Virus record (IMG/VR): IMGVR_UViG_3300032292_000478 | Location: 1-26,941 of that record | Length of the DNA: 26,941 nt | Direction: 5' to 3' (one strand) | DNA from: a virus | Lineage: Duplodnaviria; Caudoviricetes | In this document: one piece after another, positions 2,734 through 22,259 of the stretch | Numbering within the stretch: the first letter of the stretch is position 1 | Layout of the letters: each line of letters opens with the position of its first letter | Made by a program: the position numbers and the translations under genes | Notes under the pieces: generated by a model | Databases searched by the model: none | What the model was told of the DNA's origin: nothing | What the model saw: the letters and a program-made list of their open reading frames with translations, nothing else

Positions 2734-3139
2734 ATACGCCTTTTCAATCAAGGCACAGTTGTTCCACTGGAACGTGGAAGGACCTGACTTCGCGCAGTTA
2801 CACGAATTCTTTGGCAATCTCTACGAAGAAGTATACAACAACAGCATTGACAAAACCGCTGAGTATATACGCACCTTGGACGAATATGCCCCAGGCAGTT
2901 TTGAACGTTTCAATGAACTGAGCCTGATACCAGGTCAGACCAAGATACCCCGTGCCAGACTCATGATTGAAGAACTGTTGGCCAACAACAATACTTTGAT
3001 CGAACTGCTGAATGATTGCTTTGCAGTAGCCGAGCAAGAGAACAATCAAGGCATTGCTAACTTCATCGCCGAACGCCTGGATGCACAAGCCAAGCATGGT
3101 TGGATGCTGAAGTCATTCCTGAAAGATCAAAGAGCATGA
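2696..3139 (+). CDS. dps: Dps / ferritin-like DNA-protecting protein
   Basis: HWNVEGPDFAQLHEFF and D..AE ferroxidase signature, C-terminal KHGWML. Start placed at ATG 2696 after AAGGA. Confidence 0.93.
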   Translation: MLADSLKTLLATEYAFSIKAQLFHWNVEGPDFAQLHEFFGNLYEEVYNNSIDKTAEYIRTLDEYAPGSFERFNELSLIPGQTKIPRARLMIEELLANNNTLIELLNDCFAVAEQENNQGIANFIAERLDAQAKHGWMLKSFLKDQRA

Positions 3140-4292: not shown

Positions 4293-6953
4293 ATGAGTTA
4301 CATCGACGCACTATTTGATCGTGAACACGATCGCATCCATGTTGTAGAACGCCGCGACGGCCAAAGACAGTATCGAGAATATCCGGCCAACTACATCTTC
4401 TACTACGATGATCCCAGAGGCAAGTTCCGCAGCATCTACGGCACATCCGTGTCAAGGTTCAGCACACGCAACAACAAAGAGTTCCGCAAAGAAGTGCGCA
4501 TGCACGGCGGCAAACAACTGTATGAGAGTGACATCAATCCCATTTTCCGTTGCTTTGAAGAGAACTACAAGGATCAGAATGCGCCAGAACTACACACAGC
4601 TTTCTTTGACATTGAGGTAGCCTTTGACAAGGAACGTGGATTCAGCCCTGTGGCAGATCCATTCAATCCTATCACTGCCATATCCATATATCTTGACTGG
4701 TTGGATCAACTGATCACATTGGCTGTACCACCCAAAGGATTGAGTTGGGACACGGCACAAGATCTAGTCAAAGAATTTGACAATACTGTGCTGTTTGAGT
4801 CTGAATCGGAAATGGTCAAATCCTTCCTGGACATCATTGATGACGCGGATGTGCTCAGTGGTTGGAACAGTGAGGGCTATGATATCCCTTACACAGTGAA
4901 CCGCATCACACGCATACTCAGTAAAGATGACACCAGGAAGTTCTGTCTTTGGGGACAACTGCCCAAGCAGAGAACATTTGAACGCTTTGGTGCCGAGAAT
5001 CAAACTTACGATTTGATTGGCCGTGTGCATATGGACTATATGCAACTGTATCGCAAGTACACCTATGAAGAACGCCATTCATACAGCTTGGACGCCATCA
5101 GTGAATACGAACTGGGTGAACGCAAGACACAGTTTGAAGGCACATTGGACCAACTGTACAATCAGCACTTTAAGACATTCATTGAGTACAACCGCCAAGA
5201 TACCATGCTGATTGGCAAGCTGGACAAAAAACTACGATTCCTGGACTTGGCCAACGAACTGGCACATGCCAATACTGTGCTGCTGCAAACCACAATGGGT
5301 GCCGTGGCTGTGACTGAACAGGCCATCATCAATGAAGCACATGAGCGTGGTATGGTGGTTCCAAATCGCAAACAACGACTCACAGACGAGGACACACAGG
5401 CTGCAGGTGCTTATGTGGCCTATCCCAGAAAAGGCATGCATGAATGGATTGGCTCAGTGGACTTGAACAGTCTGTATCCATCCACCATCCGGGCCTGTAA
5501 CATGGGACCCGAAACTATCGTAGGGCAACTGCGCCAGACCATGACTGATAGATTGATACACGATCACATCACATCAGGTATGAGCTTTGCAGCAGCATGG
5601 GAAGGCTTGTTTGGATCACTGGAATATACTGCTGTGATGGAACAACAGCGAGGTACAGAGATTACCATAGACTGGGAGTCTGGAGAAGAGTCTGTACACA
5701 GCGCCGCTGAAGTATGGAACTTGATCTACGACAGCAATCAGCCTTGGATACTCACTGCCAATGGTACCATACTCAGCTATGAGAAGAAAGGCATCATCCC
5801 AGGACTGCTGGAACGCTGGTATGCCGAACGCAAAGAGATGCAGGCCAAGAAAAAGGATGCCACTGACAAGAAGGAAGAAGCTTTCTGGGACAAGCGCCAG
5901 CTGGTCAAGAAGATTAACTTGAACAGTTTGTATGGTGCTATCTTGAATCCAGGCTGTAGATTCTTTGACAAGCGCATTGGTCAAAGCACCACGCTCACAG
6001 GTCGTGCTATCGCTAGACACATGGACGCCTACATCAATGAATGCATCACGGGCAAGTATGATCACGTGGGTGAAGCAGTGATCTACGGTGACACAGATTC
6101 GTGTTACTTCAGTGCCTGGCCTGTGTTGCGGAAGGAAGTCTCAGAAGGACGCATGACATGGAACAAAGAAACCTGCATCCAGCTATATGACAGCATAGCT
6201 GAACAGGTCAATGAAAGTTTTCCTGCATTTATGGAACAGAGTTTCCATTGTCCCAGAGACATGGGATCACTGATCCGAGCCGGTCGAGAAATGGTTGCTG
6301 ACCGTGGTTTGTTTATCACCAAGAAGCGTTATGCTGTGAACATCATTGACTTGGAAAACCGTAGACTGGATGTGGAAGGCAAGACAGGTAAGATCAAGGC
6401 CACAGGCTTGGATCTCAAGCGCAGTGACACACCCAAGGTCATACAAGACTTCCTTAGCGATGTGTTGGCAGATGTACTATCAGGTGCCGAACGTGAATCT
6501 ATCATTGAAAAGATCCGTGAGTTCAAGTATGCGTTCAAAGAGAGACCAGGCTGGGAGAAAGGTTCGCCCAAGCGTGTGAACAACTTGACCAAGTATGGCA
6601 AGGAAGAAGAACGACTGGGCAAAGCCAACATGCCAGGGCATGTGCGGGCTGCGCTGAACTGGAATACCTTGCGTAGGATGAATTCAGACAACTATAGCAT
6701 GGCCGTAGTAGATGGTATGAAGACCATAGTGTGCAAGCTCAAAAGCAATGCCCTGGGATGGACCAGCATTGGTTATCCCACAGATGAGCAGCATTTGCCG
6801 CAATGGTTTAAAGAACTACCTTTTGATGACAGCGAGATGGAAGCCACTGTGGTAGATGGCAAAGTAGACAACTTGCTGAGTGTGTTGGACTGGGATCTTG
6901 CCAGTGCCACCAATACCGAAAACACTTTCCAATCATTATTTTCATTCGAATGA
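4293..6953 (+). CDS. gp43: Family B DNA polymerase, T4 gp43-like
   Basis: ExoI FFDIEV, ExoII GWNSEGYDIPY, ExoIII YNRQD; polymerase motifs DLNSLYPS, KINLNSLYG, YGDTDS and KKRY. Confidence 0.97.
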   Translation: MSYIDALFDREHDRIHVVERRDGQRQYREYPANYIFYYDDPRGKFRSIYGTSVSRFSTRNNKEFRKEVRMHGGKQLYESDINPIFRCFEENYKDQNAPELHTAFFDIEVAFDKERGFSPVADPFNPITAISIYLDWLDQLITLAVPPKGLSWDTAQDLVKEFDNTVLFESESEMVKSFLDIIDDADVLSGWNSEGYDIPYTVNRITRILSKDDTRKFCLWGQLPKQRTFERFGAENQTYDLIGRVHMDYMQLYRKYTYEERHSYSLDAISEYELGERKTQFEGTLDQLYNQHFKTFIEYNRQDTMLIGKLDKKLRFLDLANELAHANTVLLQTTMGAVAVTEQAIINEAHERGMVVPNRKQRLTDEDTQAAGAYVAYPRKGMHEWIGSVDLNSLYPSTIRACNMGPETIVGQLRQTMTDRLIHDHITSGMSFAAAWEGLFGSLEYTAVMEQQRGTEITIDWESGEESVHSAAEVWNLIYDSNQPWILTANGTILSYEKKGIIPGLLERWYAERKEMQAKKKDATDKKEEAFWDKRQLVKKINLNSLYGAILNPGCRFFDKRIGQSTTLTGRAIARHMDAYINECITGKYDHVGEAVIYGDTDSCYFSAWPVLRKEVSEGRMTWNKETCIQLYDSIAEQVNESFPAFMEQSFHCPRDMGSLIRAGREMVADRGLFITKKRYAVNIIDLENRRLDVEGKTGKIKATGLDLKRSDTPKVIQDFLSDVLADVLSGAERESIIEKIREFKYAFKERPGWEKGSPKRVNNLTKYGKEEERLGKANMPGHVRAALNWNTLRRMNSDNYSMAVVDGMKTIVCKLKSNALGWTSIGYPTDEQHLPQWFKELPFDDSEMEATVVDGKVDNLLSVLDWDLASATNTENTFQSLFSFE

Positions 6954-7888
6954 AGCTAAGCCAACTAATCTCCTATCGTAATCTATTGCGAACCAAAGAG
7001 TTTGACCCAGAGTATGGTGCAATCACTGGACGCTTAGATCATATCGTACATACTGTGCAAAATCACAAAGTACAGTTTCCGTCATGTACCAAGGATGTTG
7101 CTCTACACTCAGACAATGTCAGACGGGCTATAAAAGGTTTCCATCGTGAACTAGAAACATTGAAAGTCGAGATCGAAACACAGATCGCCAGGCAGGAGAG
7201 ATCATACTATCAACAAAGCCTACGATGGTTCATTGACGAATCTCCCAATGAAACCACAGACTACATCTTAGATCGTCGGCTCAAAATCAGTGATGCAGAC
7301 AAAGAAGTCCTGTGCAATCGAATCCGTAGTCACAGTGATTGGAGATTGCCCGGGATGGTCTTACGGCCCGGTAAGGAAGATTTTATTGATATCATGGTCG
7401 CATTGGATCCGTTGTATGTGGTTGATCTGAGTGAAGCACTGTTACAACCTGCAGTCAGTCATTTTCCGGATATGTATCAAATTCGAGTACGACAGTATGT
7501 GATCAATGACAAAACTGATGACAAGATATTTGATCGCTTGCCCAAGGGTCAGTTTGGATTGATCTTTGCCTACAGCTATTTCAACTTCTTGCCCATGGAA
7601 ATGATCAAGCGTTATCTAGCAGAATCCATGGAACTGCTGCGTCCAGGCGGCACGATCATTTTTACTTACAATGATTGTGATCGAGAAGAATCAGTTGGGT
7701 CAGTTGAGAACCATTTCATGTGCTATACCCCTGGTGGAAAAATACAACAAATGGCCAAGGAACTTGGATTTGAGATTGAACGTAATGTGTATGGTGATCA
7801 TGGGCTGGCCTGGTTTGAGATGAGGCGGCCAGGCAAAGTATCCAGTATGCGTGGTGCTCAGACACTGGCAAAAATATATCGAATTTAG
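6950..7888 (+). CDS. Class I SAM-dependent methyltransferase-like protein with an N-terminal helical/coiled-coil region
   Basis: C-terminal FGLIFAYSYFNF...ELLRPGGTIIF resembles methyltransferase motifs; glycine-rich motif I is degenerate. Confidence 0.55.
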   Translation: MKLSQLISYRNLLRTKEFDPEYGAITGRLDHIVHTVQNHKVQFPSCTKDVALHSDNVRRAIKGFHRELETLKVEIETQIARQERSYYQQSLRWFIDESPNETTDYILDRRLKISDADKEVLCNRIRSHSDWRLPGMVLRPGKEDFIDIMVALDPLYVVDLSEALLQPAVSHFPDMYQIRVRQYVINDKTDDKIFDRLPKGQFGLIFAYSYFNFLPMEMIKRYLAESMELLRPGGTIIFTYNDCDREESVGSVENHFMCYTPGGKIQQMAKELGFEIERNVYGDHGLAWFEMRRPGKVSSMRGAQTLAKIYRI

Positions 7889-7917
7889 TTGCAAAATCTA
7901 AATAACCCTGTTATAAT
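7889..7917 (+). promoter_or_regulatory. Sigma70-like extended -10 promoter with an embedded TAAATA
   Basis: TTGCAA (7889-7894), 17 bp, TGnTATAAT (7909-7917); AAAATCTAAATA at 7893-7904; SD AGGAG follows. Confidence 0.75.
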
Positions 7918-7935
7918 AATCCATAGGAGAAAAAC

Positions 7936-8661
7936 ATGAGAGACTATCTTTTAGACTTAGTAGAACACACACACGACCTCGGCTGCATCGACTTGATCAA
8001 GATCACCGGCGATGACAAATCCACACAGATCGTGGGCATCGCCGAAGACCTTTCTGTGGTATTAGAAGGTGAACTTAAGAATCCACATCCTGACTTTGTT
8101 GGCACGTTTGGTATGCCTAACTTGAGCAAGCTCAAGATTATTTTGAGCTTACAAGAGTACAAGGAAAACGCCACGCTCAAGCTGTCACGCCGCAAGGACA
8201 CTGGCGTTCTCGATGGTATTGATTTTAGCAATGCCAATGGAGACTTCCGCAACAACTATCGCTTCATGACCGCAGAAGTGGTCACAGACAAACTCAAGAC
8301 TCCCAAGTTCAAAGGTGTCACTTGGCATATCGAGTTTGAACCCACAGTAGCTGCTATCCAGAAACTGCGCATGCAGGCACAAGCCAATGCTGAAGAACCC
8401 AACTTCCAGGCCAAGACTGAAAACGGTGACCTCAAGTTCTTCTTTGGTGATCACAGCACACACGCTGGTAACTTTGTGTTCCATCCCAGTGTTGGTGGCC
8501 AGTTGAAACGTGCATGGTCATGGCCTGCTGCACAAGTCATGGGTATCTTGGCTCTCACCGGGGACAAGACTGTGCGCATCAGCGATGATGGTGCTGCTAA
8601 AATCACTGTGGATTCTGGCCTGGCTGTTTACAACTACATCCTGCCAGCTCAAAGCAAATAA
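7936..8661 (+). CDS. Probable DNA polymerase sliding clamp, gp45/PCNA-like
   Basis: 241 aa, a clamp-like size with an alternating beta/alpha two-domain pattern, C-terminal YNYILPA, located beside the polymerase with a strong SD. The fold call is inferred. Confidence 0.6.
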   Translation: MRDYLLDLVEHTHDLGCIDLIKITGDDKSTQIVGIAEDLSVVLEGELKNPHPDFVGTFGMPNLSKLKIILSLQEYKENATLKLSRRKDTGVLDGIDFSNANGDFRNNYRFMTAEVVTDKLKTPKFKGVTWHIEFEPTVAAIQKLRMQAQANAEEPNFQAKTENGDLKFFFGDHSTHAGNFVFHPSVGGQLKRAWSWPAAQVMGILALTGDKTVRISDDGAAKITVDSGLAVYNYILPAQSK

Positions 8662-8670: not shown

Positions 8671-8970
8671 ATGAAATGGTTTGATCGTTGGTTTTATCGT
8701 CAAGCTAAAAAGGCTTGGGATAATAAAAACAAGTATGACGAGGTCTACCCAACTCCGCCTGGTCTGCTGGCCGCCGTGGAATGTGATGATGTGGATTGGG
8801 GAGATGGTCTCAACATCCGTGTGAAGCGTGTGAATGGTGGCTTTATCATAAACTTCCGCAAGTATGATCGAGTCAAAGACCGGAATCAAGAAAACATCCA
8901 CATCATCACTGACGAAATGGAGTTCAACCGGGAACTGGGCAAGCTGATCACATTGGAGAGCATGCGTTGA
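8671..8970 (+). CDS. Hypothetical protein
   Basis: 99-aa ORF with SD AAGGA; its stop overlaps the next start. Confidence 0.7.
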   Translation: MKWFDRWFYRQAKKAWDNKNKYDEVYPTPPGLLAAVECDDVDWGDGLNIRVKRVNGGFIINFRKYDRVKDRNQENIHIITDEMEFNRELGKLITLESMR

Positions 8971-10529
8971 CCCAAGACGATCTAACCAGCAAACAGAATG
9001 ACTATGCTGTGTTCCTCCCAGCCATCTCCGGATTCTACGCTACCTTCATAGGCAAACAGCGTCAGGATCCCATGAACCCTTATGTGGATCCTGCTCGGTT
9101 CCCAAATGGTCTTAATGATATGGAACAGATGAACTGGCTCAACAGCCAGCAAGCCTTGTTTCCCTATCGTTGGAGCCTGTATTCAGGTGGTCATGCCAAT
9201 CTGGATCTCAACAAACAGGACTGGTCTGAGGACATGGTGCGTAATCGCGAACCTGGCACCTTCATACTAGGTGACTCCGGAGGATTCCAGATTGCCAAAG
9301 GTCTGTGGGAGGGTGACTGGAAAGCCAACTCGGGTTGCCCAAAAGCACAGAAGAAACGAGCAGACGTATTGAACTGGTTGGATAATATGGCCGACTATGG
9401 CATGATTTTGGACATACCAACTTGGGTGATCCATGACAAAAAAGCCAGCCGGGCTTGCCAGATTACCACACTAAACGAAGCCGTGGATGCTACCAAGTTC
9501 AACAACGAATACTTCATGAAACACCGTCGTGGTAAAGACAATGGCGGTGCCAAGTTCTTGAATGTGTTGCAAGGTGACAATCATACATCAGCAGAGCAGT
9601 GGTATCAGATGATGAAGGACTACTGTGATCCTGCAAAGTATCCTACCACACACTTTGATGGTTGGTCAATGGGTGGTCAGAACATGTGTGATGTACACTT
9701 AGTGCTCAAACGGTTAGTGGCCTTGCGTTACGATAACTTGTTGCAACAGGGCAAGCATGACTGGATGCACTTCTTGGGCACCTCCAAACTGGAATGGGCA
9801 GTGCTACTCACAGTCATACAGCGGGCAGTACGGAAGTATGTCAACCCCGATTTCACCATCAGCTTTGACTGTGCCAGCCCGTTCTTGGCCACAGCAAATG
9901 GACAAGTCTACTTTGAGAATGTATTTGAGCACGACTCAAAATGGTCATACAGAATGGCTCCCAGTGCCGACGATAAGAAGTATTCCACAGATACTCGTAA
10001 GTGGAGCACTGGTGTGGTAGCAGATGGTATCTATCCACGCTGGGAAGATTCACCAATCAGTGACCTATTGCAGATGAAAGACATCTGTATCTACCGGCCT
10101 GGTGATCTCAACAAAAATGGTAAAGAGGGCAAAACTTCGTGGGATAGTTTCAGCTATGCCTTGTTGATGGGTCACAATGTTTGGATGCACTTGACTGCGG
10201 TACAAGAGGCCAATAGGCGTTTTGATGCCGGAGAACATCCTGCCATGATGCGACGCCAAGGTGGTGACTATGCTAAGTTTGAGGACATAGTGGAATCCAT
10301 ATTCGCTGCACCAGATCGGGCCACTGCTGAATCCATAATCGAAAAGTACAGCAGCTATTGGATGGAGATCGTGGGCACACGAGGATTCAAAGGCAAGAAG
10401 GCCATGAATGCCCGAACACAGTTCAATGTGTTGTTTGATTTAGAAGAACAAAGTGTTGACAACAATATCGAAGATGCTGTAAACTTAGACTCATCCGCAT
10501 TAGATCAACTTGAACAGGAACAAACATGA
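8967..10529 (+). CDS. dpdA: TGT-fold guanine transglycosylase, DpdA-like (7-deazaguanine insertion into DNA)
   Basis: TGT motifs LGDSGGFQ, MILDIP, NVLQG, GWSMGG, HFLG, SFDCAS and HN; clustered with folE/queD/queE; TTG start. DNA rather than tRNA as the substrate is inferred from context. Confidence 0.8.
   Translation: MTQDDLTSKQNDYAVFLPAISGFYATFIGKQRQDPMNPYVDPARFPNGLNDMEQMNWLNSQQALFPYRWSLYSGGHANLDLNKQDWSEDMVRNREPGTFILGDSGGFQIAKGLWEGDWKANSGCPKAQKKRADVLNWLDNMADYGMILDIPTWVIHDKKASRACQITTLNEAVDATKFNNEYFMKHRRGKDNGGAKFLNVLQGDNHTSAEQWYQMMKDYCDPAKYPTTHFDGWSMGGQNMCDVHLVLKRLVALRYDNLLQQGKHDWMHFLGTSKLEWAVLLTVIQRAVRKYVNPDFTISFDCASPFLATANGQVYFENVFEHDSKWSYRMAPSADDKKYSTDTRKWSTGVVADGIYPRWEDSPISDLLQMKDICIYRPGDLNKNGKEGKTSWDSFSYALLMGHNVWMHLTAVQEANRRFDAGEHPAMMRRQGGDYAKFEDIVESIFAAPDRATAESIIEKYSSYWMEIVGTRGFKGKKAMNARTQFNVLFDLEEQSVDNNIEDAVNLDSSALDQLEQEQT
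10456..10485 (+). promoter_or_regulatory. Possible internal sigma70-like promoter within the 3' end of dpdA
   Basis: TTGACA (10456-10461), 18 bp, TAAACT (10480-10485), about 40 nt upstream of the next start. Confidence 0.4.
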
Positions 10530-11044
10530 AACGAGAAGGCTTCGATGATATCCAGTTTTTTGTGGGCTCAGAAGTAGAACTCACACCCATGTATGGCAAG
10601 ACCACTTTGTTTGTGGTAGGCTTACATGCTGCCAAAGACATCATGAAACACGTGGCCAACCACCCTGATGGCATCCAGCATGTGTATTTCGGTGCCAATC
10701 AAAGTTTTCCTAACTTGGCCACTGACAATGCCAAGGAGTGGAAAGCCTGGACCAAGATGATCTCGGATGTGTTGGCTGAAGGTATCTGGGCCACATTGGA
10801 TCTAGACATCAGCTGCGTGGAAGGCCTTGCTGATACAGGCTTGTGTGAGCACTTCAACTTCATCCCAATGATCTCAGCCAAACTACCCTACATCAATCAA
10901 CTGGGATACAATGCTGTGCTCAAACTAGATGACCGGGACTTCCAAGCCACCAATCCTGGTGTTTGGTGTTGGAATATACATGACCTCAAACAGCGTGACT
11001 ACTTTACCAGCTGGGACGCTTACACTCAGGACGAAAGACTATGA
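10526..11044 (+). CDS. Hypothetical protein of the deazaguanine cluster
   Basis: 172-aa ORF with ATGA coupling on both sides; enzyme-like motifs HVYFGANQSF and KLDDRDFQATNPGVW. Confidence 0.75.
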   Translation: MKREGFDDIQFFVGSEVELTPMYGKTTLFVVGLHAAKDIMKHVANHPDGIQHVYFGANQSFPNLATDNAKEWKAWTKMISDVLAEGIWATLDLDISCVEGLADTGLCEHFNFIPMISAKLPYINQLGYNAVLKLDDRDFQATNPGVWCWNIHDLKQRDYFTSWDAYTQDERL

Positions 11045-11496
11045 TAGAACAACGAGAAATGGCATTACAAGAAAAGCATCAGCGCATCATGGACCTAGCA
11101 GAGCGCAAGATATGGGTGACCTTCCGCAAAGAGGGCATGCATAAATACCCGGCAGCAGCCACAGACCCAGCGTTGGCCACCGGAGATGAATATGACGTAT
11201 CGTTCCTTGCTAATCCCCATCGTCATATTTTTCATTTCAGGGTGTGGATCGATGTGTTCCATAATGACAGGGACATCGAGTTCATCCAATTCAAACGATG
11301 GCTGGAGAATCTGTTTCGCGATTCCACTCTAAGCCTAGACTACAAATCTTGCGAGATGATCGCAGACGACCTATATACCCAAATCTCATCACGTTACCCT
11401 GGTCGTAGCGTGTGGATTGAAGTGGCCGAAGATGGTGAGAACGGCTGCCTCATCAAATACGATACTCACCGTCCTAACATCAACTTAGCAATCTAA
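11041..11496 (+). CDS. dpdL: QueD-paralogous T-fold protein, DpdL-like (proposed CDG decarboxylase)
   Basis: LANPHRHIF fits LxxxHRHxF in place of the QueD CxxxHGH motif; T-fold tail SCEMIA...EVAEDGENG. The DpdL motif is recalled from the literature, not searched. Confidence 0.7.
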   Translation: MIEQREMALQEKHQRIMDLAERKIWVTFRKEGMHKYPAAATDPALATGDEYDVSFLANPHRHIFHFRVWIDVFHNDRDIEFIQFKRWLENLFRDSTLSLDYKSCEMIADDLYTQISSRYPGRSVWIEVAEDGENGCLIKYDTHRPNINLAI

Positions 11497-11510
11497 AAGG
11501 AAACTGCATC

Positions 11511-11732
11511 ATGGGCAAGCGCGACTATCAACCCAATCCCCGTACACAACAAACTTTGGAGGACTTGGACAAGTTCTTAGAGTTCTGTCGTGACTACGGA
11601 TATCGCTTCAACGAAGGCGATCTCTACAACTTCAAGGCCTATGCCTGGCAACAATACAACAAATTCAGTTCAGGCAAAAACGCCAAGAACATGTGGGACG
11701 AGGATAGCCGTCGGCTTGCTGGTGCTCGCTGA
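11511..11732 (+). CDS. Small hypothetical protein
   Basis: 73-aa ORF with SD AAGGA and TGATG coupling to the next gene. Confidence 0.7.
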   Translation: MGKRDYQPNPRTQQTLEDLDKFLEFCRDYGYRFNEGDLYNFKAYAWQQYNKFSSGKNAKNMWDEDSRRLAGAR

Positions 11733-12931
11733 TGAGAAAACTTTTCTACATGGGCCTTGAGTCGTACGAGGCCCGATACACACTACAACTCACTGAATGG
11801 AATCGGCGTGTGTTTGATCGCCGTGGACTAGATGTGGTGTATGTGCCTGGTACGACCATTGACGATAGCCAAAGCATCAGCGTAGGACAGGTCCTGGACG
11901 CACATGGCCGCAGTTATTTTTCAATGAGCCAGATGATGAATCTGGTGCAACTGATGAAAGACGGAGAAGTCACCAGTGACGACGTCATCTACTTCGAAGA
12001 CATGTTCCAGCCCGGCATCGAAAGCCTGCCTTACATCATGGATCAGATCCCTGCTGATATGCGGCCTCGTGTGTTTGTGCGCTGTCTTGCTCAGGCTATT
12101 GACCCTGATGACTTTGTTCATGTATGGGGCATGGCGCAGTGGATGTCAACTTATGAAAAGATGGTGAACCACTTTGTGTCAGGCGTGTTGGCCACTAACG
12201 AAGAGATGGTAGCTCATATGCGCATCGCTGGATGGACTGCCCCAATCTACAACATTTCAGGGTTGGCATTTGGCAAAGAGGAAGTGCTGGAGCGTGTGGA
12301 TGGCAAGGTGCGTCCATTTGAACAACGCAAGATGCGTGTGGGATTCGCTGCTCGTTGGGATCAGGAGAAACAGCCCGGCTTCTTCATGGACATGATCGAA
12401 GCATACTTGAGCCGACCACCTGCTGCTAGACACGAAGTCCGGTTTGCTATATTTTCTGGCGGTCCTCTGCGCAGCAACAATCCCGAGTATGTGTCGCGAG
12501 CCAGGACTATGGCAGCACAGGGCAAGCTAGACATCCACGAGAACCTAGGAAAAAATGAGTATTATAGATTACTTAATGATACTCGCGTATTGTTTAATTG
12601 TGCTCTACAAGATTGGGTCAGCAATACTGTCAGCGAAGGGGACACCTTAGGCGCTAATGTGTTATATCCCGCTTATCGCAGTTTTCCAGAAACCTTTGCC
12701 AATGACCATGAGCGTATGTATGTGCCTTGGAGCCAGGAAGATGCCTTGGCCAAACTGGATCTACTGCTGCTGGCACCACATCACAATCAAGGCTTGATCT
12801 CAGACTGGACCAATGGCACTGTGGACCGTGTGGTAGATATCATGCAAGGTCAAGGTGAACAATGGCGTAGAGATGATCCACGCTACAGGGATCATGCTGC
12901 CACAGCCAAATACTCATTGAGGGCACGATAA
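11732..12931 (+). CDS. GT-B fold (GT4-like) glycosyltransferase
   Basis: FAARWDQEKQPG, LQDWVSNTVSEG and YRSFPE match the pattern of the GT-B C-terminal nucleotide-sugar binding domain. Confidence 0.8.
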   Translation: MRKLFYMGLESYEARYTLQLTEWNRRVFDRRGLDVVYVPGTTIDDSQSISVGQVLDAHGRSYFSMSQMMNLVQLMKDGEVTSDDVIYFEDMFQPGIESLPYIMDQIPADMRPRVFVRCLAQAIDPDDFVHVWGMAQWMSTYEKMVNHFVSGVLATNEEMVAHMRIAGWTAPIYNISGLAFGKEEVLERVDGKVRPFEQRKMRVGFAARWDQEKQPGFFMDMIEAYLSRPPAARHEVRFAIFSGGPLRSNNPEYVSRARTMAAQGKLDIHENLGKNEYYRLLNDTRVLFNCALQDWVSNTVSEGDTLGANVLYPAYRSFPETFANDHERMYVPWSQEDALAKLDLLLLAPHHNQGLISDWTNGTVDRVVDIMQGQGEQWRRDDPRYRDHAATAKYSLRAR

Positions 12932-13878
12932 TGAACATTGTAGTCACAGGAGCCGCAGGTTTCATTGGCGGCGAGATCATGCTCAAACTCAAAGATGCTG
13001 GACACCGTGTGATGGGTGTTGACTTTACACCCTTGCCTGATCACTTGCAAGGTGTGCCAGACTACTTCTTGTTTCGAGACTTTGCGGATCAAGACAGCAC
13101 AGCAGAGATGCATAAGTGGCAACCAGATGCTATCATCCATTGTGCTGGTACCAGTTTGGTTGGGCCTAGTCTTGCCAACCCAGGCATCTACTACAACAAC
13201 AACGTGGTCAAGACCTTGATCCTGCTGGGCAACGTCAACACCTTTATGCCCGGATGTAGAGTCATATTCAGTTCTAGTGCAGCGGTGTATGGACAACCAA
13301 TCATGACCCCATGTCATGAAGTAGATCCAAGAGAACCCATTTCTCCCTATGGAGAGAGTAAGATGATGATTGAGCAAGTGCTCGAAAGCTATCATCGTGC
13401 TTACAAACTAGATTATGTGGCCTTCCGTTACTTCAATGCCTGTGGTGCTGATAGTCAAGCAAGGCATGGACAGGCACCTGGTGCTACCCATGTCATAGCT
13501 CGTTTGCTGGAAGCTATACGTGATGATTTGGTGTTTACTGTGAATGGCAACAACTACAATACCGATGATGGCACTTGCGTGAGAGACTATGTGCATGTGG
13601 AAGATATCGCAGAAGCTCATATCCGTGCATTAGATCGTGATATTCCTGCAGGTGTGTATAATCTAGGCAACAGCACAGGTACCAGTGTGATGCAGATTTT
13701 GGCTGCTTGCAATGCGATCACAGGACGTACTCCAGTGGTTGGATTTGGTCCACGCCGCCAAGGCGATCCAGACACTCTTACTGCATCATCAGACAAGTTT
13801 GACCGTGTGGCTCCGGGTTGGCGCAAATACGATCTGGATCACATGATCCAACACGCCTGGAAGTGGTATGTTCGATAA
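12931..13878 (+). CDS. galE: UDP-glucose 4-epimerase / NAD-dependent sugar epimerase
   Basis: TGAAGFIG, FSSSAAVYG, catalytic YGESK, RYFNACGA, DGTCVRDYVHV. Confidence 0.93.
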   Translation: MNIVVTGAAGFIGGEIMLKLKDAGHRVMGVDFTPLPDHLQGVPDYFLFRDFADQDSTAEMHKWQPDAIIHCAGTSLVGPSLANPGIYYNNNVVKTLILLGNVNTFMPGCRVIFSSSAAVYGQPIMTPCHEVDPREPISPYGESKMMIEQVLESYHRAYKLDYVAFRYFNACGADSQARHGQAPGATHVIARLLEAIRDDLVFTVNGNNYNTDDGTCVRDYVHVEDIAEAHIRALDRDIPAGVYNLGNSTGTSVMQILAACNAITGRTPVVGFGPRRQGDPDTLTASSDKFDRVAPGWRKYDLDHMIQHAWKWYVR

Positions 13879-14464
13879 GATCCTAAAGTTTGAAAAGGAG
13901 TTGGCTGAGTTCTGTGGCGCGCCTTATGCCATCATGACCGACTGCTGCACCCATGCCATTGAGCTGTGCCTAAGACACGATCAGATTCGAGCACTAAAGA
14001 TGACTCCATATACCTACATCAGCATACCCATGCTTATGCACAAGTTAGGTATCCATTATGTGTACAAAGATGAAACCGAGCAAACTTGGGCCGGTGAGTA
14101 TGATTTTATGTATACTCGCATTTGGGACAGTGCTCGTAGACTAGAACCAGACATGTATCAATCAGGCAAGATGCAATGTTTGAGTTTTGGCTATGACAAG
14201 CCTTTAAACATAGGCCGTGGTGGTGCTATACTGTTGGATGATCGCAAAGCATACGACAAAATAATCCGTATGAGATACGATGGACGTGATCTAACTGTGT
14301 CACCGTGGATCGATCAAAAGAAGTTTGTGGTAGGATACCATTACAAGCCTACCATAGAAGAGGCTGTGCTTGGTTCGAAGTTGTTGAAGAAGCTGAAGAA
14401 AGATTGTCCGCCTGTTAAAACAGTTGCGTATCCTGATCTAAGAAATATAAAAATCTCGGAATGA
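13868..14464 (+). CDS. Short DegT/DnrJ/EryC1/StrS-like PLP-dependent aminotransferase
   Basis: FEKELAEFCGAPYA, CCTHAIEL, DSA and SFGYDKPLNIGRGGAI (PLP lysine); only 198 aa. Confidence 0.75.
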   Translation: MFDKILKFEKELAEFCGAPYAIMTDCCTHAIELCLRHDQIRALKMTPYTYISIPMLMHKLGIHYVYKDETEQTWAGEYDFMYTRIWDSARRLEPDMYQSGKMQCLSFGYDKPLNIGRGGAILLDDRKAYDKIIRMRYDGRDLTVSPWIDQKKFVVGYHYKPTIEEAVLGSKLLKKLKKDCPPVKTVAYPDLRNIKISE

Positions 14465-16202: not shown

Positions 16203-16904
16203 ATGACAGACACAAGCAAACATCTATCACAAGTATTGCGCGAGCGCATGAAGTCAGATGGCAAGAGGTTCTGGGCCGGAGACAACATCAGCGACTATCT
16301 AGCTGATTCGGACAAAGAACACTTGATCACCGAAGCCACAGAGGCTTTTGAAAAAGTCTTGGATGCACTATTGATCGATCGTGAAAATGATCCCAATAGC
16401 CAAGGAACAGCCCGCCGTATGGCGAAAATGTATTTTAACGAAATCATGAGTGGACGATATGATACCAGCCCTGCTGCGACCAGTTTCCCCAACGAAGACG
16501 AAGGCAAATACCAAGGTATGTTGGTTGTTAGATCCGAACTCAAAAGTATGTGTTCGCATCATCACCAACCAGTCACCGGCATCGCGTACATCGGCATCAT
16601 CGCAGGCTCCACGCTGATCGGTCTCAGCAAGTATAGCCGCATCGCACAATGGTGTGCTCGTCGTGGAACCTTGCAGGAAGAACTGTGCATGGACATCGCA
16701 CGTGAGATTGGTCGTGCTTCGGGCAGTCCGGATGTGGGCGTGTATATCCAAGCCCAGCATGGTTGTTGCGAGAATCGCGGTATCATGGCATACTCCAGTC
16801 TCACACAGACCACAGTGCTCAACGGCGTGTTCAAAACAGATCCATCTGTGAAAAAAGAGTTCTTTGACAATATCAAACTACAGCAAGATTTTGCCCCACG
16901 ATAA
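16203..16904 (+). CDS. folE: GTP cyclohydrolase I
   Basis: TARRMAKMY, SMCSHHHQP, GLSKYSRI, LQEEL, HGCCENRG. Confidence 0.96.
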   Translation: MTDTSKHLSQVLRERMKSDGKRFWAGDNISDYLADSDKEHLITEATEAFEKVLDALLIDRENDPNSQGTARRMAKMYFNEIMSGRYDTSPAATSFPNEDEGKYQGMLVVRSELKSMCSHHHQPVTGIAYIGIIAGSTLIGLSKYSRIAQWCARRGTLQEELCMDIAREIGRASGSPDVGVYIQAQHGCCENRGIMAYSSLTQTTVLNGVFKTDPSVKKEFFDNIKLQQDFAPR

Positions 16905-17241: not shown

Positions 17242-17661
17242 ATGAATAGCTACATAGGTCATCGCTCTCTTAGAGATGCGCAGCAGCAGGGCACAGCCCC
17301 ATGGACTGACGAAGCCAAAGAGATATCCGACTATCATGTGGCTGTGTTCCGCGATGCGTATCCTGTGGCACCTGGACATCTGTTGTTTGTGCCTCGCTAT
17401 GACACACCTGGTGTGATCAAGGATGCATTTGACTCTGCATACATACATGGCTTGCAGCTCAAAGAGCGTGGAGAGATACAGGGGTTCAACATAGGTATGA
17501 ACATGGGCGCAGTGGCTGGTCAAACAGTGATGTACCCGCACATACACCTCATCCCAAGATCTGCAGGAGACTGTGCGGATCCGGTGGGTGGAGTGCGCGG
17601 AGTGATTCCTGGTCAGGCTAACTACAAGAACACAGGATATAAAAAACCCGAATGTTTCTAG
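17242..17661 (+). CDS. HIT-family nucleotide hydrolase
   Basis: DAYPVAPGHLLFVP, GFNIGMN, AGQTVMYPHIHLIPR. Confidence 0.9.
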   Translation: MNSYIGHRSLRDAQQQGTAPWTDEAKEISDYHVAVFRDAYPVAPGHLLFVPRYDTPGVIKDAFDSAYIHGLQLKERGEIQGFNIGMNMGAVAGQTVMYPHIHLIPRSAGDCADPVGGVRGVIPGQANYKNTGYKKPECF

Positions 17662-18479
17662 GACTCACACAAGACTATCGCCCTAATTCTGCCACACCAT
17701 TGGGGCAGTATAAACAACATCAACTATTGGTGAACAACCAGGGCGACTTTAGTTTGATGACCAATGTATGCCCGCATCAAGGCAGCATGATCACACAATG
17801 CCGTACCAGCCAACTACAATGTCCTTATCATGGTTGGAAGTTTGGTCTTGATGGTCAAGGTCAAGACAATCAAGGCCGATTGGACCAGCATCAAATATTC
17901 ACAGTCAATGATATGCTGTTGAGCGAGGCCATAGATTTTGTTCCTACTATGCCTCTCAAACACATGACCTTGATGAAACATCGCACTGACCTAGTGGAAG
18001 CTTCAGTGGATGCCATCATGGATGTGTTCCTGGACATTGACCATATATCCGTGGCCCATGCTGGTGTGTATGATCCCATTGGCCTCAGCAGGTTTGGTGA
18101 TATACGCATTGAAACTTTTGATCAAGGTAGCTTACAAACGGTTCCTGCACAACAACCACCTCACATCCTCACCGAAGATCACATGCGAAACATCGGAGCC
18201 ATGTGGTTGGCTATCTATCCTGGCACCATGATTGAATGGCAACCAGGTGCTCTGTTTGTCACAGTGGCCACTAACCTTGACTATAAACACAGTAGTGTAG
18301 AAGTATACAAATATCGCGATGTCAGATATCCACAACAGACCTGGACCATGAATCAACAGGTGTGGGAAAAGGCTTGGTCTCAAGATAGAGAGCTCAGCCG
18401 CAATATCGTGAACCTGTGCATGGATCCCGCAGAACCTTTGAAACAGCATCATAGAGCATGGATCAACGATGCTATGTAA
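17652..18479 (+). CDS. Rieske [2Fe-2S] non-heme iron oxygenase, compact alpha-subunit-like
   Basis: CPHQG...CPYHGW Rieske ligands; DIDHISVAH mononuclear iron motif and a distal QD. Confidence 0.85.
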   Translation: MFLGLTQDYRPNSATPLGQYKQHQLLVNNQGDFSLMTNVCPHQGSMITQCRTSQLQCPYHGWKFGLDGQGQDNQGRLDQHQIFTVNDMLLSEAIDFVPTMPLKHMTLMKHRTDLVEASVDAIMDVFLDIDHISVAHAGVYDPIGLSRFGDIRIETFDQGSLQTVPAQQPPHILTEDHMRNIGAMWLAIYPGTMIEWQPGALFVTVATNLDYKHSSVEVYKYRDVRYPQQTWTMNQQVWEKAWSQDRELSRNIVNLCMDPAEPLKQHHRAWINDAM

Positions 18480-19335
18480 AAATAACTGGATCAATCTTAC
18501 TTGGGATGGCAAGACAGCAAGAGACAAAACAGAAAATATCCGCATTGAGTTCTTACGCCGTGCTCGTGTCTTGATGGATTTTGATCATGCCTGTGATCGA
18601 GCAGCTAGTGAAATATACGATAGTCACAAAAATCTGTACCTAGCGCTCAGTGGTGGCAGTGACAGCGAATACGTGGCCACTTGTTTGCATCGCAATGGCA
18701 TACCATTTACACCACTGATATTGCGATATAACCTGGCCACATCCAATGACCAACACTATGAAACTTGGTATGCTATGCATTGGTGTAGGACACATAATGT
18801 AGAACCTGTGATTGTTGATATCGATGATTATGTGACATCAGATCATGGAAAAGCAGTGTATCTCAAACACAAACCAAGATTGCTGGGAGGTTCAGTCACT
18901 GCTGGATTCTTACATCAATATGTGAATGAACTTGGTGGCAAGCTCGTAACTGGTTATCAGATCGAATACTATCCAGACCAAGAGCAGATGACCTATCTTG
19001 AACCGCAACTGGGTGACTATCGTGGCTTCGTGCTCGAAGAAAGCGATCTGTATATTGAGACCTTGGCTCCAAATCAACATCCCTGGGCCTTCTACTACTG
19101 GAGTCCAGAAGTGATGAGCAGTTTTGTAAATGCCTGGGATACTAATCTCAACATGTGCGACAACAAGTCTCGGATATACAAGACTAGTCCACGGCCTAAA
19201 TTCTTATATCCTGCTAACTTTTTTCCGGGCAAACAATGGATCATTAGGAAAACACTGTCCGAAAACAACTGGGGGACCATTGATTGTGCTCTACTAGGCG
19301 ATCGCAAAAGTTTATTGGATCAACTGCTAGAGTAA
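18469..19335 (+). CDS. PP-loop (adenine nucleotide alpha-hydrolase) superfamily protein
   Basis: LALSGGSDS PP-loop; lacks the QueC C-terminal Cys/Zn motif. Confidence 0.7.
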   Translation: MLCKNNWINLTWDGKTARDKTENIRIEFLRRARVLMDFDHACDRAASEIYDSHKNLYLALSGGSDSEYVATCLHRNGIPFTPLILRYNLATSNDQHYETWYAMHWCRTHNVEPVIVDIDDYVTSDHGKAVYLKHKPRLLGGSVTAGFLHQYVNELGGKLVTGYQIEYYPDQEQMTYLEPQLGDYRGFVLEESDLYIETLAPNQHPWAFYYWSPEVMSSFVNAWDTNLNMCDNKSRIYKTSPRPKFLYPANFFPGKQWIIRKTLSENNWGTIDCALLGDRKSLLDQLLE

Positions 19336-19346
19336 ATACTGTTCCC

Positions 19347-19411
19347 AAGCGGTCTTGGCGTCACTCCCGCTTTACAAATTCTGCCGCCTATGCTATAATC
19401 TAACATAGGAG
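19347..19411 (+). ncRNA. Candidate preQ1-I-like riboswitch (H-type pseudoknot plus SD-sequestering stem) upstream of queD
   Basis: P1 AAGCGG (19347-19352) pairs with CCGCTT (19367-19372). Loop GGCG (19357-19360) pairs with TGCC or CGCC (19382-19388) after an A-containing linker. CCTATG (19387-19392) pairs with CATAGG (19404-19409), covering the SD. Confidence 0.5.
19371..19399 (+). promoter_or_regulatory. Sigma70-like extended -10 promoter for queD, nested in the structured leader
   Basis: TTTACA (19371-19376), 17 bp, TGcTATAAT (19391-19399); a separate TAAATA at 19333-19338. Confidence 0.75.
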
Positions 19412-19417
19412 AAACAC

Positions 19418-19906
19418 ATGGCAAAATATATTTCTACTAAGACGTACAATCAAATAGGCCCCGTGGCATACCGTCAATGGCGCGCCGACAGTCACTGCAA
19501 TCTGGTACATGGTTACGCATTGAGTTTCCACTTTGAATTTGAATGTGATACTCTTGATGCTCGTAACTGGTGCATGGATTTCGGAGGATTGAGACCACTC
19601 AAGGACAAACTAGAGGAATGGTTTGACCATACTCTATTGGTTGCTCAGGATGATCCTCATCGTGATGCACTACTGAACTTGGGTAAACTGGGCATAGCCA
19701 AGATCACCGAAGTAGAAAAGACAGGCTGCGAAGGATTAGCTGACTTCCTGTACGAATATATCAACACCATATTCTTTCCCATGTATGGAACGGAAGAAGC
19801 CAAGCGTGTGTGGTGTTGCAAAGTAGAAGTGCGTGAAACTGATTCAAACATGGCCATGCGTGTGGGCCATAGGTCGGACAATGAGTTCGACGATTTTGTT
19901 AACTAA
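19418..19906 (+). CDS. queD: 6-carboxy-5,6,7,8-tetrahydropterin synthase
   Basis: HCNLVHGY, MDFGGL, FDHTLL, GCEGLA, VEVRET. Confidence 0.92.
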   Translation: MAKYISTKTYNQIGPVAYRQWRADSHCNLVHGYALSFHFEFECDTLDARNWCMDFGGLRPLKDKLEEWFDHTLLVAQDDPHRDALLNLGKLGIAKITEVEKTGCEGLADFLYEYINTIFFPMYGTEEAKRVWCCKVEVRETDSNMAMRVGHRSDNEFDDFVN

Positions 19907-19918
19907 AGGAGGTATCAT

Positions 19919-21081: not shown

Positions 21082-21090
21082 GGAGAACAA

Positions 21091-21635: not shown

Positions 21636-22259
21636 ATGTTAGATCGTATCTTAGCAGGACTTGACCGAGCATTGGTCACCAAACTCATGATAGCACACAT
21701 CGCTATCATCGCACTCAGCAACTATCTAGTGCAGTTCAAGTTTGACCTTGCTGGGCATCCCCTGGCAGTGGCAGCGTTCACTTTCCCACTAGTGGTGGTG
21801 TTGACTGACTTGACCGTGCGTTTGCTGGGCAAGGAAACTGGCCGCGCAGTGATTGGATTGGCATTCATCCCTGCTGTGTTTGTCAGTATCTTGGTGGTGT
21901 TGGCCGGTGGTGCTCCCAGTTCAGTGGCATTCCGTATTGGTCTAGGATCAGGTGTGGCTTATTTGGTTAGCAACTTGCTGGACGTTTATGTGTTCCAATA
22001 CCTGCGTGAGAAGTATGCCACCTGGTGGATCGCTCCTGCACTGAGCTGTGTGGTGAGCACATTCTTTGACACCTATGCTTTCTTCTTCACAGCATTCGCC
22101 GGAGGCCAGAACGAGTTCATGGCAGCTAACTGGCACATCGTGGCCACTAACCAAAGTATCACCAAGATCGTTGTGAGCCTGTTGGTGATCCTGCCTGCTT
22201 ATGGCATGTTGTTGAGCTACTTGCAAAACAAAATAGCCAACGACACTGCTGCTCAGTAA
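21636..22259 (+). CDS. yhhQ: Queuosine-precursor (preQ0/preQ1) transporter, VUT family
   Basis: IIALSNYLVQ, FTFPLVVVLTDLTVRLLG, RIGLGS..AY...LLDVYVF, FDTYAFF. Confidence 0.9.
   Translation: MLDRILAGLDRALVTKLMIAHIAIIALSNYLVQFKFDLAGHPLAVAAFTFPLVVVLTDLTVRLLGKETGRAVIGLAFIPAVFVSILVVLAGGAPSSVAFRIGLGSGVAYLVSNLLDVYVFQYLREKYATWWIAPALSCVVSTFFDTYAFFFTAFAGGQNEFMAANWHIVATNQSITKIVVSLLVILPAYGMLLSYLQNKIANDTAAQ

Follow-up and report, generated by a model that had tools for sequence, protein, structure and literature searches.

The DNA analysed here (the window) is a 26,941-nt stretch of the Caudoviricetes virus record IMGVR_UViG_3300032292_000478, and the genome of this large phage is known only as this 27-kb fragment. 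Seven plus-strand open reading frames between 8967 and 14464 are joined by spacings of -4, -4, +14, -1, -1 and -11 nt, and the overlap at 5 of 6 junctions confirms the tightly packed, mostly coupled run that an earlier note on this DNA had described (Table 1). The folE, queD and queE genes lie downstream of the run, where the same note had placed them. The gene order of the block is kept far beyond chance expectation, with a probable clamp gene 5' of it in 72 of 73 loci (its homologue in Phosso is an annotated sliding clamp) and folE after it in 35 of 37. The window also carries two GT2 genes, a B12 radical SAM gene and methyltransferase genes; near-complete relatives have 9–19 radical SAM matches per genome.

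Table 1 Genes of the deazaguanine block and its surroundings in the window.
Feature	Position	Strand	Evidence
Family B DNA polymerase, methyltransferase-like gene, probable sliding clamp (replication context)	4293..8661	+	Family matches
Long DpdA-type guanine transglycosylase, TGT fold, 520 aa	8967..10529	+	Model, motifs, PA5oct homologue
Conserved 172-aa protein, no known family	10526..11044	+	Recurrence across loci
DpdL (QueD paralogue, proposed CDG decarboxylase), 151 aa	11041..11496	+	Motif, pocket residues, phiST match
73-aa protein, lineage-specific passenger	11511..11732	+	Locus counts
GT-B glycosyltransferase, dpdL-linked family related to QTMAN/GTDC1, 399 aa	11732..12931	+	Fold, residues, co-occurrence, kinship
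GalE-type NDP-sugar epimerase, 315 aa	12931..13878	+	TIGR01179 above cut-off
Short DegT-like PLP-fold protein, 198 aa, optional	13868..14464	+	PF01041
FolE, GTP cyclohydrolase I	16203..16904	+	PF01227 E 3e-37
QueD	19418..19906	+	PF01242, TIGR03367, phrog_2389
YhhQ-family preQ0/preQ1 transporter	21636..22259	+	PF02592; TIGR00697 above cut-off
QueE, cut by contig end	26633..26941	+	phrog_2076 E 1e-19; TIGR03365 N-terminus

The 520-aa protein has no match in Pfam, PHROG, NCBIfam or PADLOC, and its structural model (pLDDT 90.9) has the TIM-barrel fold of TGTs, which are its best Foldseek matches and make up all 50 Foldseek and VIA matches listed (best VIA match: Z 19.0, rmsd 4.2, 304 aligned). The top solved structures among them are tRNA TGTs, and none of the 50 matches listed is a DpdA. 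Of 7,999 candidates scored, 7,971 proved to be relatives of this DpdA. Across 84 sequences, down to 35% identity, residues D103, S104, G106, D149, G203, H268, L270, G271 and D301 are invariant, and Q202 of the pair Q202-G203 is retained in at least 90%. We take D103-S-x-G, D149, Q202-G203, H268-x-L-G and D301 to map to the catalytic and guanine-binding residues of the Z. mobilis TGT, with D301 as the nucleophile. The protein is 35.6% identical to QCG76197.1 of PA5oct, which is listed as a DpdA3 by Cui et al. (PMC10516641, Data S1), and is distant from the short phiST DpdA3 (hhalign 25.5%, E 7.5e-4). The fold, the intact motifs and the published homologue bear out its identification as DpdA. 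By analogy with PA5oct, from whose homologue the DNA target is taken, the long DpdA likely exchanges a deazaguanine for G in DNA. PA5oct DNA resists five restriction enzymes, which the accessible part of the source interprets as modified G in GA and/or GG (PMC12191111).

The 151-aa protein, previously called dpdL-like, can be assigned to DpdL. It carries LxxxHRHxF (L56-x3-H60-R-H62-x-F64) in place of the QueD motif CxxxHGH, matches DpdL of phiST, ACP17 and PA5oct, and has the phiST DpdL pocket residues given by Cui et al. (PMC10516641): G32, H34, L56, H60, R61, H62, F64, R77, E80, S103, E105 and E130. These 12 positions are invariant or nearly so among 10 sequences. From its sequence, DpdL likely decarboxylates CDG to 7-deazaguanine, an activity proposed but not demonstrated by Cui et al. 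(PMC10516641). We estimate that IMG/VR holds ~3,400 dpdL-pattern stretches. FolE, QueD and QueE make CDG from GTP, and their genes and dpdL are all four present in the window. Phages with the glycosyltransferase-bearing module gave no full-length match to QueC or QueF_N: QueC exceeded the cut-off in none of six such cultured phages, and ten near-complete relatives gave partial N-terminal QueC matches in three, one of them barely over the cut-off and covering 76 of 210 positions.

The model of the 399-aa glycosyltransferase (GT; pLDDT 86.1) has a GT-B fold and aligns with 6kih (Z 25.6, rmsd 3.9, 344 aligned). PF00534 is matched by 86 of 94 family members at E up to 1, and the dpdL-linked GTs form one sequence and structure family. 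Residues R208, K213 and E302 are invariant in 22 diverse members, some only ~20% identical to the window protein, and D294 is conserved in the near family; R208, K213 and D294/E302 (acidic-x7-Glu) are presumably the donor-site motif of retaining, GT4-like GT-B enzymes. The T4 alpha- and beta-glucosyltransferases (AGT and BGT) are phage GT-B enzymes that add sugar to a pre-modified base, hydroxymethylcytosine, in DNA. The structural comparison with them that the earlier note suggested gave no specific likeness to AGT, which ranked 17th (Z 21.3) among generic GT4/GT5 folds and not above other such enzymes. A pterin (tetrahydrobiopterin) glucosyltransferase scored above AGT (Z 23.1), among near-tied fold matches. 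Unlike for the T4 enzymes, a purine acceptor is predicted here, and the window showed no hydroxymethylase gene.

Kinship with the QTMAN/GTDC1 family (Q-tRNA alpha-mannosyltransferase; PF12038 + PF00534), likewise GT-B enzymes, is new relative to the earlier note. Judged by sequence, QTMAN-family proteins appear to be the closest relatives of the GT among those tested, mainly by the donor lobe. A phage GT profile scored 41–85 bits against 12 distinct full-length QTMAN_N proteins versus at most 10.9 bits for other GT4 reading frames, and a profile of the C-terminal donor lobe scored 37–75 versus at most 10.1 bits. The profile-profile alignment (hhalign 99.4%, E 4.7e-21, 272 columns) extends through the N-lobe, but only the donor lobe shows significant likeness, as the N-lobe profile reached at most 4 bits against QTMAN proteins and none of the 94 GT family members matches QTMAN_N (PF12038) at E up to 1. 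In the reverse search, QTMAN-profile scores of phage GTs (median 35 bits, range 16.5–76; window protein 27) overlap with that of one ordinary GT4 at 37 bits. Two trees place the phage GT and QTMAN rows on one side of a branch (SH-aLRT 100 and 95); both come from quick searches, carry a long-branch warning and draw their controls from four genomes. The bacterial proteins compared are QTMAN family members by sequence. In the accessible part of its description, QTMAN mannosylates a 7-deazaguanine in tRNA with GDP-mannose (10.64898/2026.06.28.735034). The known member thus modifies a nucleic acid at a 7-deazaguanine nucleoside, whereas the substrate of the phage GT is likely DNA; in further contrast, the Q side chain is not makeable from the phage's own genes.

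Co-occurrence and synteny with dpdA and dpdL, the check first asked of the GT-B, hold across unrelated phage lineages. The GT is found in all 37 dpdA-anchored loci of the window's family, and dpdA in all 73 GT-anchored loci with enough flank, a set spanning phages in which DpdA is 33% and the clamp 28% identical while GT and DpdL remain ~70% identical. Wherever a well-flanked dpdL locus has a long DpdA, the GT adjoins dpdL (81 of 81 loci). Among 12 cultured dpdL lineages, six carry it (Paride/PA5oct, ACP17, BUDD/X1, BCSR5, Phosso and BUCT-ZZ01) and the remaining six do not. It adjoins dpdA in PA5oct, ACP17, BUDD and BCSR5, lies between the published dpdA and dpdL in PA5oct and ACP17, and in BUCT-ZZ01, from a different phage family, is 66% identical and directly 3' of dpdL. 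Phosso has the GT beside dpdL and dpdA ~170 kb away, and no GT accompanies the long DpdA and dpdL of L315–L317 within a 25.7-kb fragment. Among 185,579 prokaryote genomes there were eight matches, all 52–79% identical to the phage protein and seven accompanied by a dpd block. The GT-B therefore belongs to the deazaguanine module. With short phiST-type DpdA3 it was absent (0/11 loci, 0/5 cultured phages), most of these having a kinase or dUTPase/DCD-like gene in its place, which suggests that the presence of the GT depends on the type of inserting enzyme.

The phiST system, whose product is 2'-deoxy-7-deazaguanosine (PMC10516641), shares FolE, QueD, QueE, DpdL and a TGT-fold DpdA and likewise has no QueC, but its DpdA3 has 259 aa and lies beside MazG-like and kinase-like genes, all G is replaced, and such a GT is missing; the window instead has the 520-aa DpdA, the GT-B and the 172-aa protein. 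PA5oct and Paride have the order polymerase, clamp, dpdA, GT, dpdL, queE, and PA5oct DpdA is 36% identical to the window's. Data S1 of Cui et al. lists the PA5oct/Paride and ACP17 clusters with DpdA3 and DpdA2, respectively, together with DpdL (PMC10516641); the GT gene between dpdA and dpdL has no column in that table, and the word glycosyltransferase is absent from the available supplement text. We found no report of the identity of the PA5oct-type modified base in the literature searched. DpdM and DpdN are likewise extra tailoring enzymes of a dpd cluster that give a new base in phage DNA, but their target for methylation or formylation is the preQ1 amine, and they require QueC and QueF.

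The other genes of the run vary in their ties to this module. The 172-aa protein is encoded in 37 of 37 close and 68 of 73 wider loci, with homologues in ACP17 and Paride and distant candidates beside the GT in BUDD, BCSR5, L304, L309 and L338 that were chosen by eye and seeded into the profile. It is missing from all 11 short-DpdA3 loci and has no Pfam, PDB or usable Atlas match. It is likely an accessory part of the GT-bearing module and is our best candidate for a helper. The 73-aa gene occurs in 37/37 close and 35/73 wider loci, its product matching no Pfam, PHROG or NCBIfam family. The GalE-type protein scores 279.8 bits against TIGR01179 (cut-off 262.3) and has the GxxGxxG and YxxxK motifs, with Y140 and K144 kept by at least 95% of the 155 different sequences. 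In the clade of window-type GTs, 72 of 74 loci have its gene, which may supply the donor there without being a universal part. Contrary to the earlier inclusion of galE and degT as cluster parts, neither is fixed: across well-flanked loci of three dpdL samples, galE occurs in 40/47, 4/21 and 2/13, and degT in 39/47, 2/21 and 1/13 (and in 16 of 65 wider loci). The DegT-like protein has the PLP lysine/aspartate motifs, with D87-S88, S106-F107 and K111 kept by at least 95% of the 94 different homologues (171–237 aa), but at 198 aa it is about half the family length rather than a full two-domain chain (~370 aa), and it aligns only to positions 32–64 and 174–248 of a 382-aa solved member. As galE and this short degT are lineage extras, the amino-sugar decoration raised earlier lacks support.

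The recurrence of the GT beside deazaguanine genes in many unrelated phages suggests that their DNA likely bears a sugar-carrying guanine substitute, and we infer such a base for the phage of the window. In the pathway that we favour, and consider somewhat probable, 7-deazaguanine is the joint product of FolE, QueD, QueE and DpdL, DpdA builds it into DNA, and the GT attaches a hexose. GTP would be converted to CDG by FolE, QueD and QueE, as their gene identities indicate, and CDG would be decarboxylated to 7-deazaguanine by DpdL, in keeping with its family and proposed activity. The long DpdA would then swap G for 7-deazaguanine after replication at a subset of sites, and the GT would move one hexose from a nucleotide sugar with retention of configuration. 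The donor could be GDP-mannose, by QTMAN kinship, or, in the window's clade, a UDP-galactose-type sugar from the adjoining GalE. About two thirds of our weight within this reading goes to the base in DNA as acceptor and about one third to the free base before insertion. The sugar might be attached at N2, at a pyrrole carbon, or at a side chain if DpdL is not a plain decarboxylase here, and the hexose-bearing 7-deazaguanine would probably shield the DNA against host nucleases. The failure of ACP17 dpdA and dpdL to yield dDG in E. coli when the gene between the two was left out (PMC10516641) also speaks for this pathway, although it has other explanations. The chief weakness is the lack of a side-chain hydroxyl on 7-deazaguanine, whereas QTMAN acts on the cyclopentenediol of Q. 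The literature searched yielded no nucleoside measurement for any GT-bearing phage and no description of a sugar-bearing guanine substitute in phage DNA.

Since the closest tested relatives of the GT are QTMAN-family proteins and tRNA TGTs lead the solved structures matched by the 520-aa model, with no DpdA among the 50 listed, the module could act on tRNA, with the TGT-fold enzyme or the host making Q-tRNA and the GT mannosylating Q so as to adjust translation or fend off anticodon nucleases. YhhQ could bring in preQ0 or preQ1, and Q glycosylation guards tRNA from fragmentation according to the accessible part of one source (10.64898/2026.06.28.735034). We regard this as unlikely: the acceptor-side lobe has no QTMAN_N match, the GT follows dpdL, which plays no part in making Q, the polymerase and clamp genes lie with the block, and G is modified in PA5oct DNA, as far as the available text of that study goes (PMC12191111). 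Moreover, Vibrio 2.275.O, the sole cultured phage with a window-type transglycosylase, queC and queF, lacks the GT. The gene arrangement in Phosso, where the GT is tied to dpdL more than to dpdA, fits a small-molecule acceptor equally well, and the GT could glycosylate a free pterin or deazapurine of the FolE branch that never enters DNA, leaving plain dDG there. The near-tied fold match to tetrahydrobiopterin glucosyltransferase (Z 23.1) agrees with this, as does HuiG, which, in the accessible part of its description, glycosylates a free 7-deazapurine in huimycin (10.64898/2026.04.15.718813). The lack of a GT wherever dpdL pairs with short DpdA3, and its position next to dpdA in four of the cultured lineages named above, make such an acceptor improbable.

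That the GT is a mere neighbour, glycosylating a virion protein, a surface or another base together with GalE, DegT and the nearby GT2 and radical SAM products, would suit the GT2, radical SAM and methyltransferase genes of the window, the many radical SAM matches of its relatives, and the sugar-modification clusters known from large phages, so far as the available portion of the source describes them (PMC7824862). We consider it very unlikely, as the GT stands beside dpdL or dpdA in six cultured lineages with varied gene orders and without galE or degT, its dpdL-linked members are one family in sequence and structure, no GT-anchored locus with enough flank lacks dpdA, and its few matches in prokaryote genomes are all phage-like and mostly lie at a dpd block. 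There is similarly little probability that the GT acts in the pathway but leaves no sugar on the base, for instance by helping the long DpdA to flip bases or by forming a transient glycoside. Its restriction to long DpdA forms and the absence of an obvious acceptor hydroxyl would fit such a role, as would the inactivity of ACP17 DpdA and DpdL alone: expressed without the intervening gene, they gave no dDG in E. coli, for which the authors give other explanations (PMC10516641). However, the donor-binding R, K and E are invariant even at ~20% identity, as would be expected if the transferase is active, and one large clade couples galE to the GT.

A bolder form of the favoured hexosylation pathway, which we offer tentatively, is that hundreds of abundant aquatic phage lineages may carry N2- or ring-carbon-glycosylated 7-deazaguanine in DNA, the product of a family sister to QTMAN, and that DpdL may serve two routes: short DpdA3 with a kinase/dNTPase-like gene would lead to full replacement by bare dDG, while a long DpdA plus the GT would give site-selective insertion and sugar capping. 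To our knowledge, all known sugar-bearing DNA bases are on pyrimidines. If true, hexosyl-deazaguanine would bring purines into this set, in a phage group that is very common, as a DNA-side counterpart of queuosine mannosylation, and would name the modified G of PA5oct-type phages, which are in use for therapy and defence research. It could also offer a possible reason for the failed published DpdL reconstitution and possibly an enzyme for labelling G. A sugar-bearing guanine substitute could be sought in phages already in culture.

The earlier note had tied a GT-B glycosyltransferase (GT) to the transglycosylase DpdA and to DpdL, and co-occurrence and synteny bear this out: the GT was present in all 81 well-flanked dpdL loci with a long DpdA, counts that are not independent because loci share descent within each clade, and in six cultured lineages, whose differing gene orders are the better measure of linkage. 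Among 80 dpdA-anchored loci, all 37 with 6 kb downstream contained the GT. Conversely, the BUCT-ZZ01 GT taken as anchor gave 80 loci (duplicates included), and those with 5 kb upstream contained dpdA in 73/73 cases and dpdL in 72/73; in the most distant members, DpdA has 33% identity and the GT and DpdL still ~70%. Three DpdL queries gave 165 loci, of which 141 were left once those sharing an identical DpdL end had been merged. For the three queries in turn, the GT was found in 47/47, 21/21 and 13/13 of the loci that combine a long DpdA with 3 kb of flank on either side. Where the flanks were shorter it was found in 29/34, and where the locus held no DpdA in 12/15. It occurred in none of the 11 loci with a short, phiST-type DpdA3, a small sample because the phiST DpdL as query had no relatives in IMG/VR and the ACP17 GT as query matched only itself. 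One true exception (L315-L317) has a long DpdA and lacks the GT on a 25.7-kb fragment; it was merged into the short-flank class when loci were collapsed.

Of 13 cultured phages searched over their whole records, six carry the GT (BUCT-ZZ01, BUDD, Paride, ACP17, Phosso and BCSR5), in each case only a few genes away from dpdL. Five of the seven others (phiST, MA9V-3, D479, Ahp1 and RHph_I1_18) have a short-type DpdA3 adjoining a kinase-like and/or dUTPase/DCD-like gene; in Bakedbeans no DpdA was found near the fused dpdL, and Vibrio phage 2.275.O, in which nothing matched dpdL, has queC and queF together with a window-type DpdA. A broader GT profile still did not find the GT in these seven phages. 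The GT is part of the deazaguanine module. Across 185,579 prokaryote genomes, GT matches were limited to eight loci (L176-L183), all in metagenome-assembled bins; these are probably mis-binned phage contigs, most of them displaying the polymerase and clamp along with the phage block.

The window is an entire virus record of 26,941 bases and a piece of a large uncultured phage: its genes run in the + direction and include a family B polymerase, and close relatives sit on IMG/VR contigs that reach 350 kb and in some cases bear terminal repeats. Among 23 runs containing the stretch, those that state a habitat were freshwater or lake metagenomes, and no RNA run was listed. The seven ORFs of the block lie where the earlier note had placed them, overlapping at five of six junctions, and are followed by folE, queD, yhhQ and the start of queE. 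Elsewhere in the window, a Dps/ferritin-like gene and a region of tailoring and stress genes were observed (see table). GT2, B12 radical SAM and methyltransferase genes recur jointly in relatives, and radical SAM matches number 9-19 each in four near-complete genomes of 330-350 kb (G001, G086, G089 and G091, the records behind L033, L198, L258 and L292) and 0 in Paride at the same threshold.

Positions of features in the window and in comparison loci (L-numbers)
Feature	Sequence	Position	Remark
Dps/ferritin-like DNA-binding protein gene	window	2702-3139	upstream of polymerase
DegT-like gene	window	13868-14464	conserved half-length family, ~200 aa; PLP fold, catalytic lysine kept
Tailoring and stress genes	window	17242-26633	HIT, Rieske protein, TerC, PurE, peroxiredoxin, YhhQ, methyltransferase; B12 radical SAM flanked by two GT2 genes
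Short-DpdA3 dpdL locus	L174	5415-7577	
Short-DpdA3 dpdL locus	L175	5431-7579	
Short-DpdA3 dpdL locus	L172	5992-8575	
Short-DpdA3 dpdL locus	L173	5971-8400	
Short-DpdA3 dpdL locus	L085	12071-13855	
Short-DpdA3 dpdL locus	L314		
Short-DpdA3 dpdL locus	L326		
Short-DpdA3 dpdL locus	L329		
Short-DpdA3 dpdL locus	L344		
Second GT-B	L081	11010-12353	~450 aa
Second GT-B	L300	3315-4682	~450 aa
Gene adjoining GT	L082	10380-11953	PAPS-reductase-like, PIG-L-like or radical SAM/SPASM
Gene adjoining GT	L171	6351-9099	as L082
Gene adjoining GT	L304	2117-3668	as L082
Gene adjoining GT	L309	6369-7088	as L082

Neither as a single sequence nor as a profile did the 520-aa DpdA match Pfam, PHROGs, NCBIfam, PADLOC or PDB, and it is a predicted transglycosylase identified by fold only. 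A model built from 84 sequences reached pLDDT 90.9, two structure searches with it gave only TGTs among the 50 matches listed (Z 19.0), and even homologues at 35% identity retain the TGT-type motifs unchanged. Matches occurred in 13 of 50,697 phage records, namely 11 of PA5oct/Paride type, Phosso and Vibrio 2.275.O. The PA5oct homologue, QCG76197.1, is listed as DpdA3 in Data S1 of Cui et al. 2023 (PMC10516641); our long/short division runs crosswise to these published names, in which PA5oct has DpdA3 whereas ACP17 and BCSR5 have DpdA2. In the PA5oct literature covered, no chemical identification of its modified base was found.

FolE, QueD and QueE produce CDG. The 151-aa protein has the published DpdL motif and pocket residues, with matches in 28 phage records from 12 lineages. 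Cui et al. proposed that DpdL decarboxylates CDG and reported that in phiST all G is replaced by dDG, the deoxynucleoside of 7-deazaguanine (DG); dDG was undetected in E. coli carrying dpdA and dpdL of phiST or ACP17, where they considered that additional enzymes may be required (PMC10516641). Neither the cultured phages with the GT nor 10 near-complete relatives gave a full-length QueC; partial PP-loop matches were seen in BUDD and in three of the relatives. QueF_N was likewise not found in this set, using a model that passed its cut-off in just one control genome and that a single-domain QueF could escape.

The GT model has a GT-B fold, with retaining GT4/GT5 enzymes nearest and no clear winner among them; T4 AGT, proposed for comparison in the earlier note, was matched at rank 17. 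The best two viral models, far above others, were a 370-aa protein, agreeing in length with the BCSR5 GT, and the ACP17 GT. All of 22 diverse GT members share the same donor-site residues. In five genomes searched, the sole non-phage match below E 6e-4 was a QTMAN_N protein of the queuosine (Q) tRNA mannosyltransferase family (E 3.6e-17); this search did not report the QTMAN_N gene that a second of the five genomes carries. With the phage profile, scores were 41-85 bits for 12 distinct full-length QTMAN_N proteins, 2.5 bits for one truncated QTMAN_N ORF, and no more than 10.9 bits for the remaining ORFs of the GT4 control loci. Profile-profile alignment of phage GT and QTMAN gave 99.4% over 272 columns. 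In two quick trees, phage and QTMAN rows came out together, apart from 26 control GTs in one and 17 in the other (SH-aLRT 100 and 95, respectively); the first carried a long-branch warning, and 10 long rows were left out of the second. Because this signal is that of the donor lobe, PF12038 matched none of the GTs, and phage GTs and ordinary GT4 proteins overlap in score in the reciprocal search, the GT is a relative of the QTMAN family outside the family proper. Of 61 genomes sampled from one bacterial phylum, 11 hold QTMAN_N proteins (L349, L350, L381-L392), against none of 14 control genomes.

Gene identities, folds, motifs and linkage are established here. As to chemistry, DpdL would yield DG, the long DpdA would install it in place of G at a subset of positions, and a hexose would be attached by the GT, so that a sugar-bearing deazaguanine in phage DNA is, in our judgement, fairly probable. 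The acceptor atom is the weak point of this mechanism, because DG has no side chain. In huimycin, the sugar position is N2. A GT of huimycin synthesis glycosylates a free deazapurine (10.64898/2026.04.15.718813), which is a precedent for the chemistry; it is equally a precedent for a free glycoside, a small molecule, as the product of the phage GT, a reading we consider unlikely. QTMAN uses GDP-mannose as donor and acts on the Q ring (10.64898/2026.06.28.735034), and tRNA as the target of the phage module is just as doubtful. It is quite improbable that the GT acts in an unrelated glycosylation, and a role leaving no sugar is equally so.

Returning to the sugar-bearing base, the full-text literature searched (including PMC13282480, PMC7824862 and PMC9025141) described neither this GT nor DNA containing a glycosylated deazaguanine, and the word glycosyltransferase is absent from the supplement text, as distinct from the separate data files, of Cui et al. 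(PMC10516641). This is a widespread deazaguanine module carrying a tailoring GT not studied before, and the predicted GT chemistry is open to immediate test in cultured phages.

The earlier note had also included galE and degT, which do not stand as fixed parts. GalE is intact and present in 72 of 74 loci of the window-type GT clade, and rare elsewhere (4/21 and 2/13 loci); Paride has merely a 172-aa epimerase-like gene. The DegT-like protein retains PLP motifs, is half-length in 94/94 distinct homologues, and is encoded in 16 of 65 wider loci; an amino sugar as a general feature was therefore rejected. In one other clade (L276, L291-L296) the DegT-like gene follows the GT and galE is absent, so the gene may have some tie to the block. 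The 172-aa gene of the block is a recurrent companion of the GT-bearing module, though some phages with the GT lack it, and no short-DpdA3 locus contained it. Its product matched no family in Pfam, PDB or Atlas, the Atlas search using a low-confidence model that gave TIM-barrel-like matches below the bar, and a fragment of DpdA or DpdA3 was ruled out (hhalign 0.4% and 3.4%). The 73-aa gene is a passenger.

AATT occurs 34 times in the window against 132 expected (0.26), and 80 related loci show no bias (median 1.0). Palindrome avoidance was rejected as evidence, as the depletion belongs to the window and not to the family; it suggests a host restriction enzyme with a G-free site, beyond shielding by guanine modification.

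The module also varies among loci. Short-DpdA3 dpdL loci carry a nucleotide kinase, MazG-like or dUTPase/DCD-like gene, often with DUF3310, and the kinase is fused to DpdL in L342-L348; such neighbors may mean that full G replacement is reached through the nucleotide pool, as opposed to the post-replicative route proposed in the literature. A second, different GT-B lies between folE and dpdA in BUCT-ZZ01 and one IMG/VR locus, suggesting two sugar steps. In other lineages, the PAPS-reductase-like, PIG-L-like and radical SAM/SPASM neighbors of the GT point to more variants of the base.
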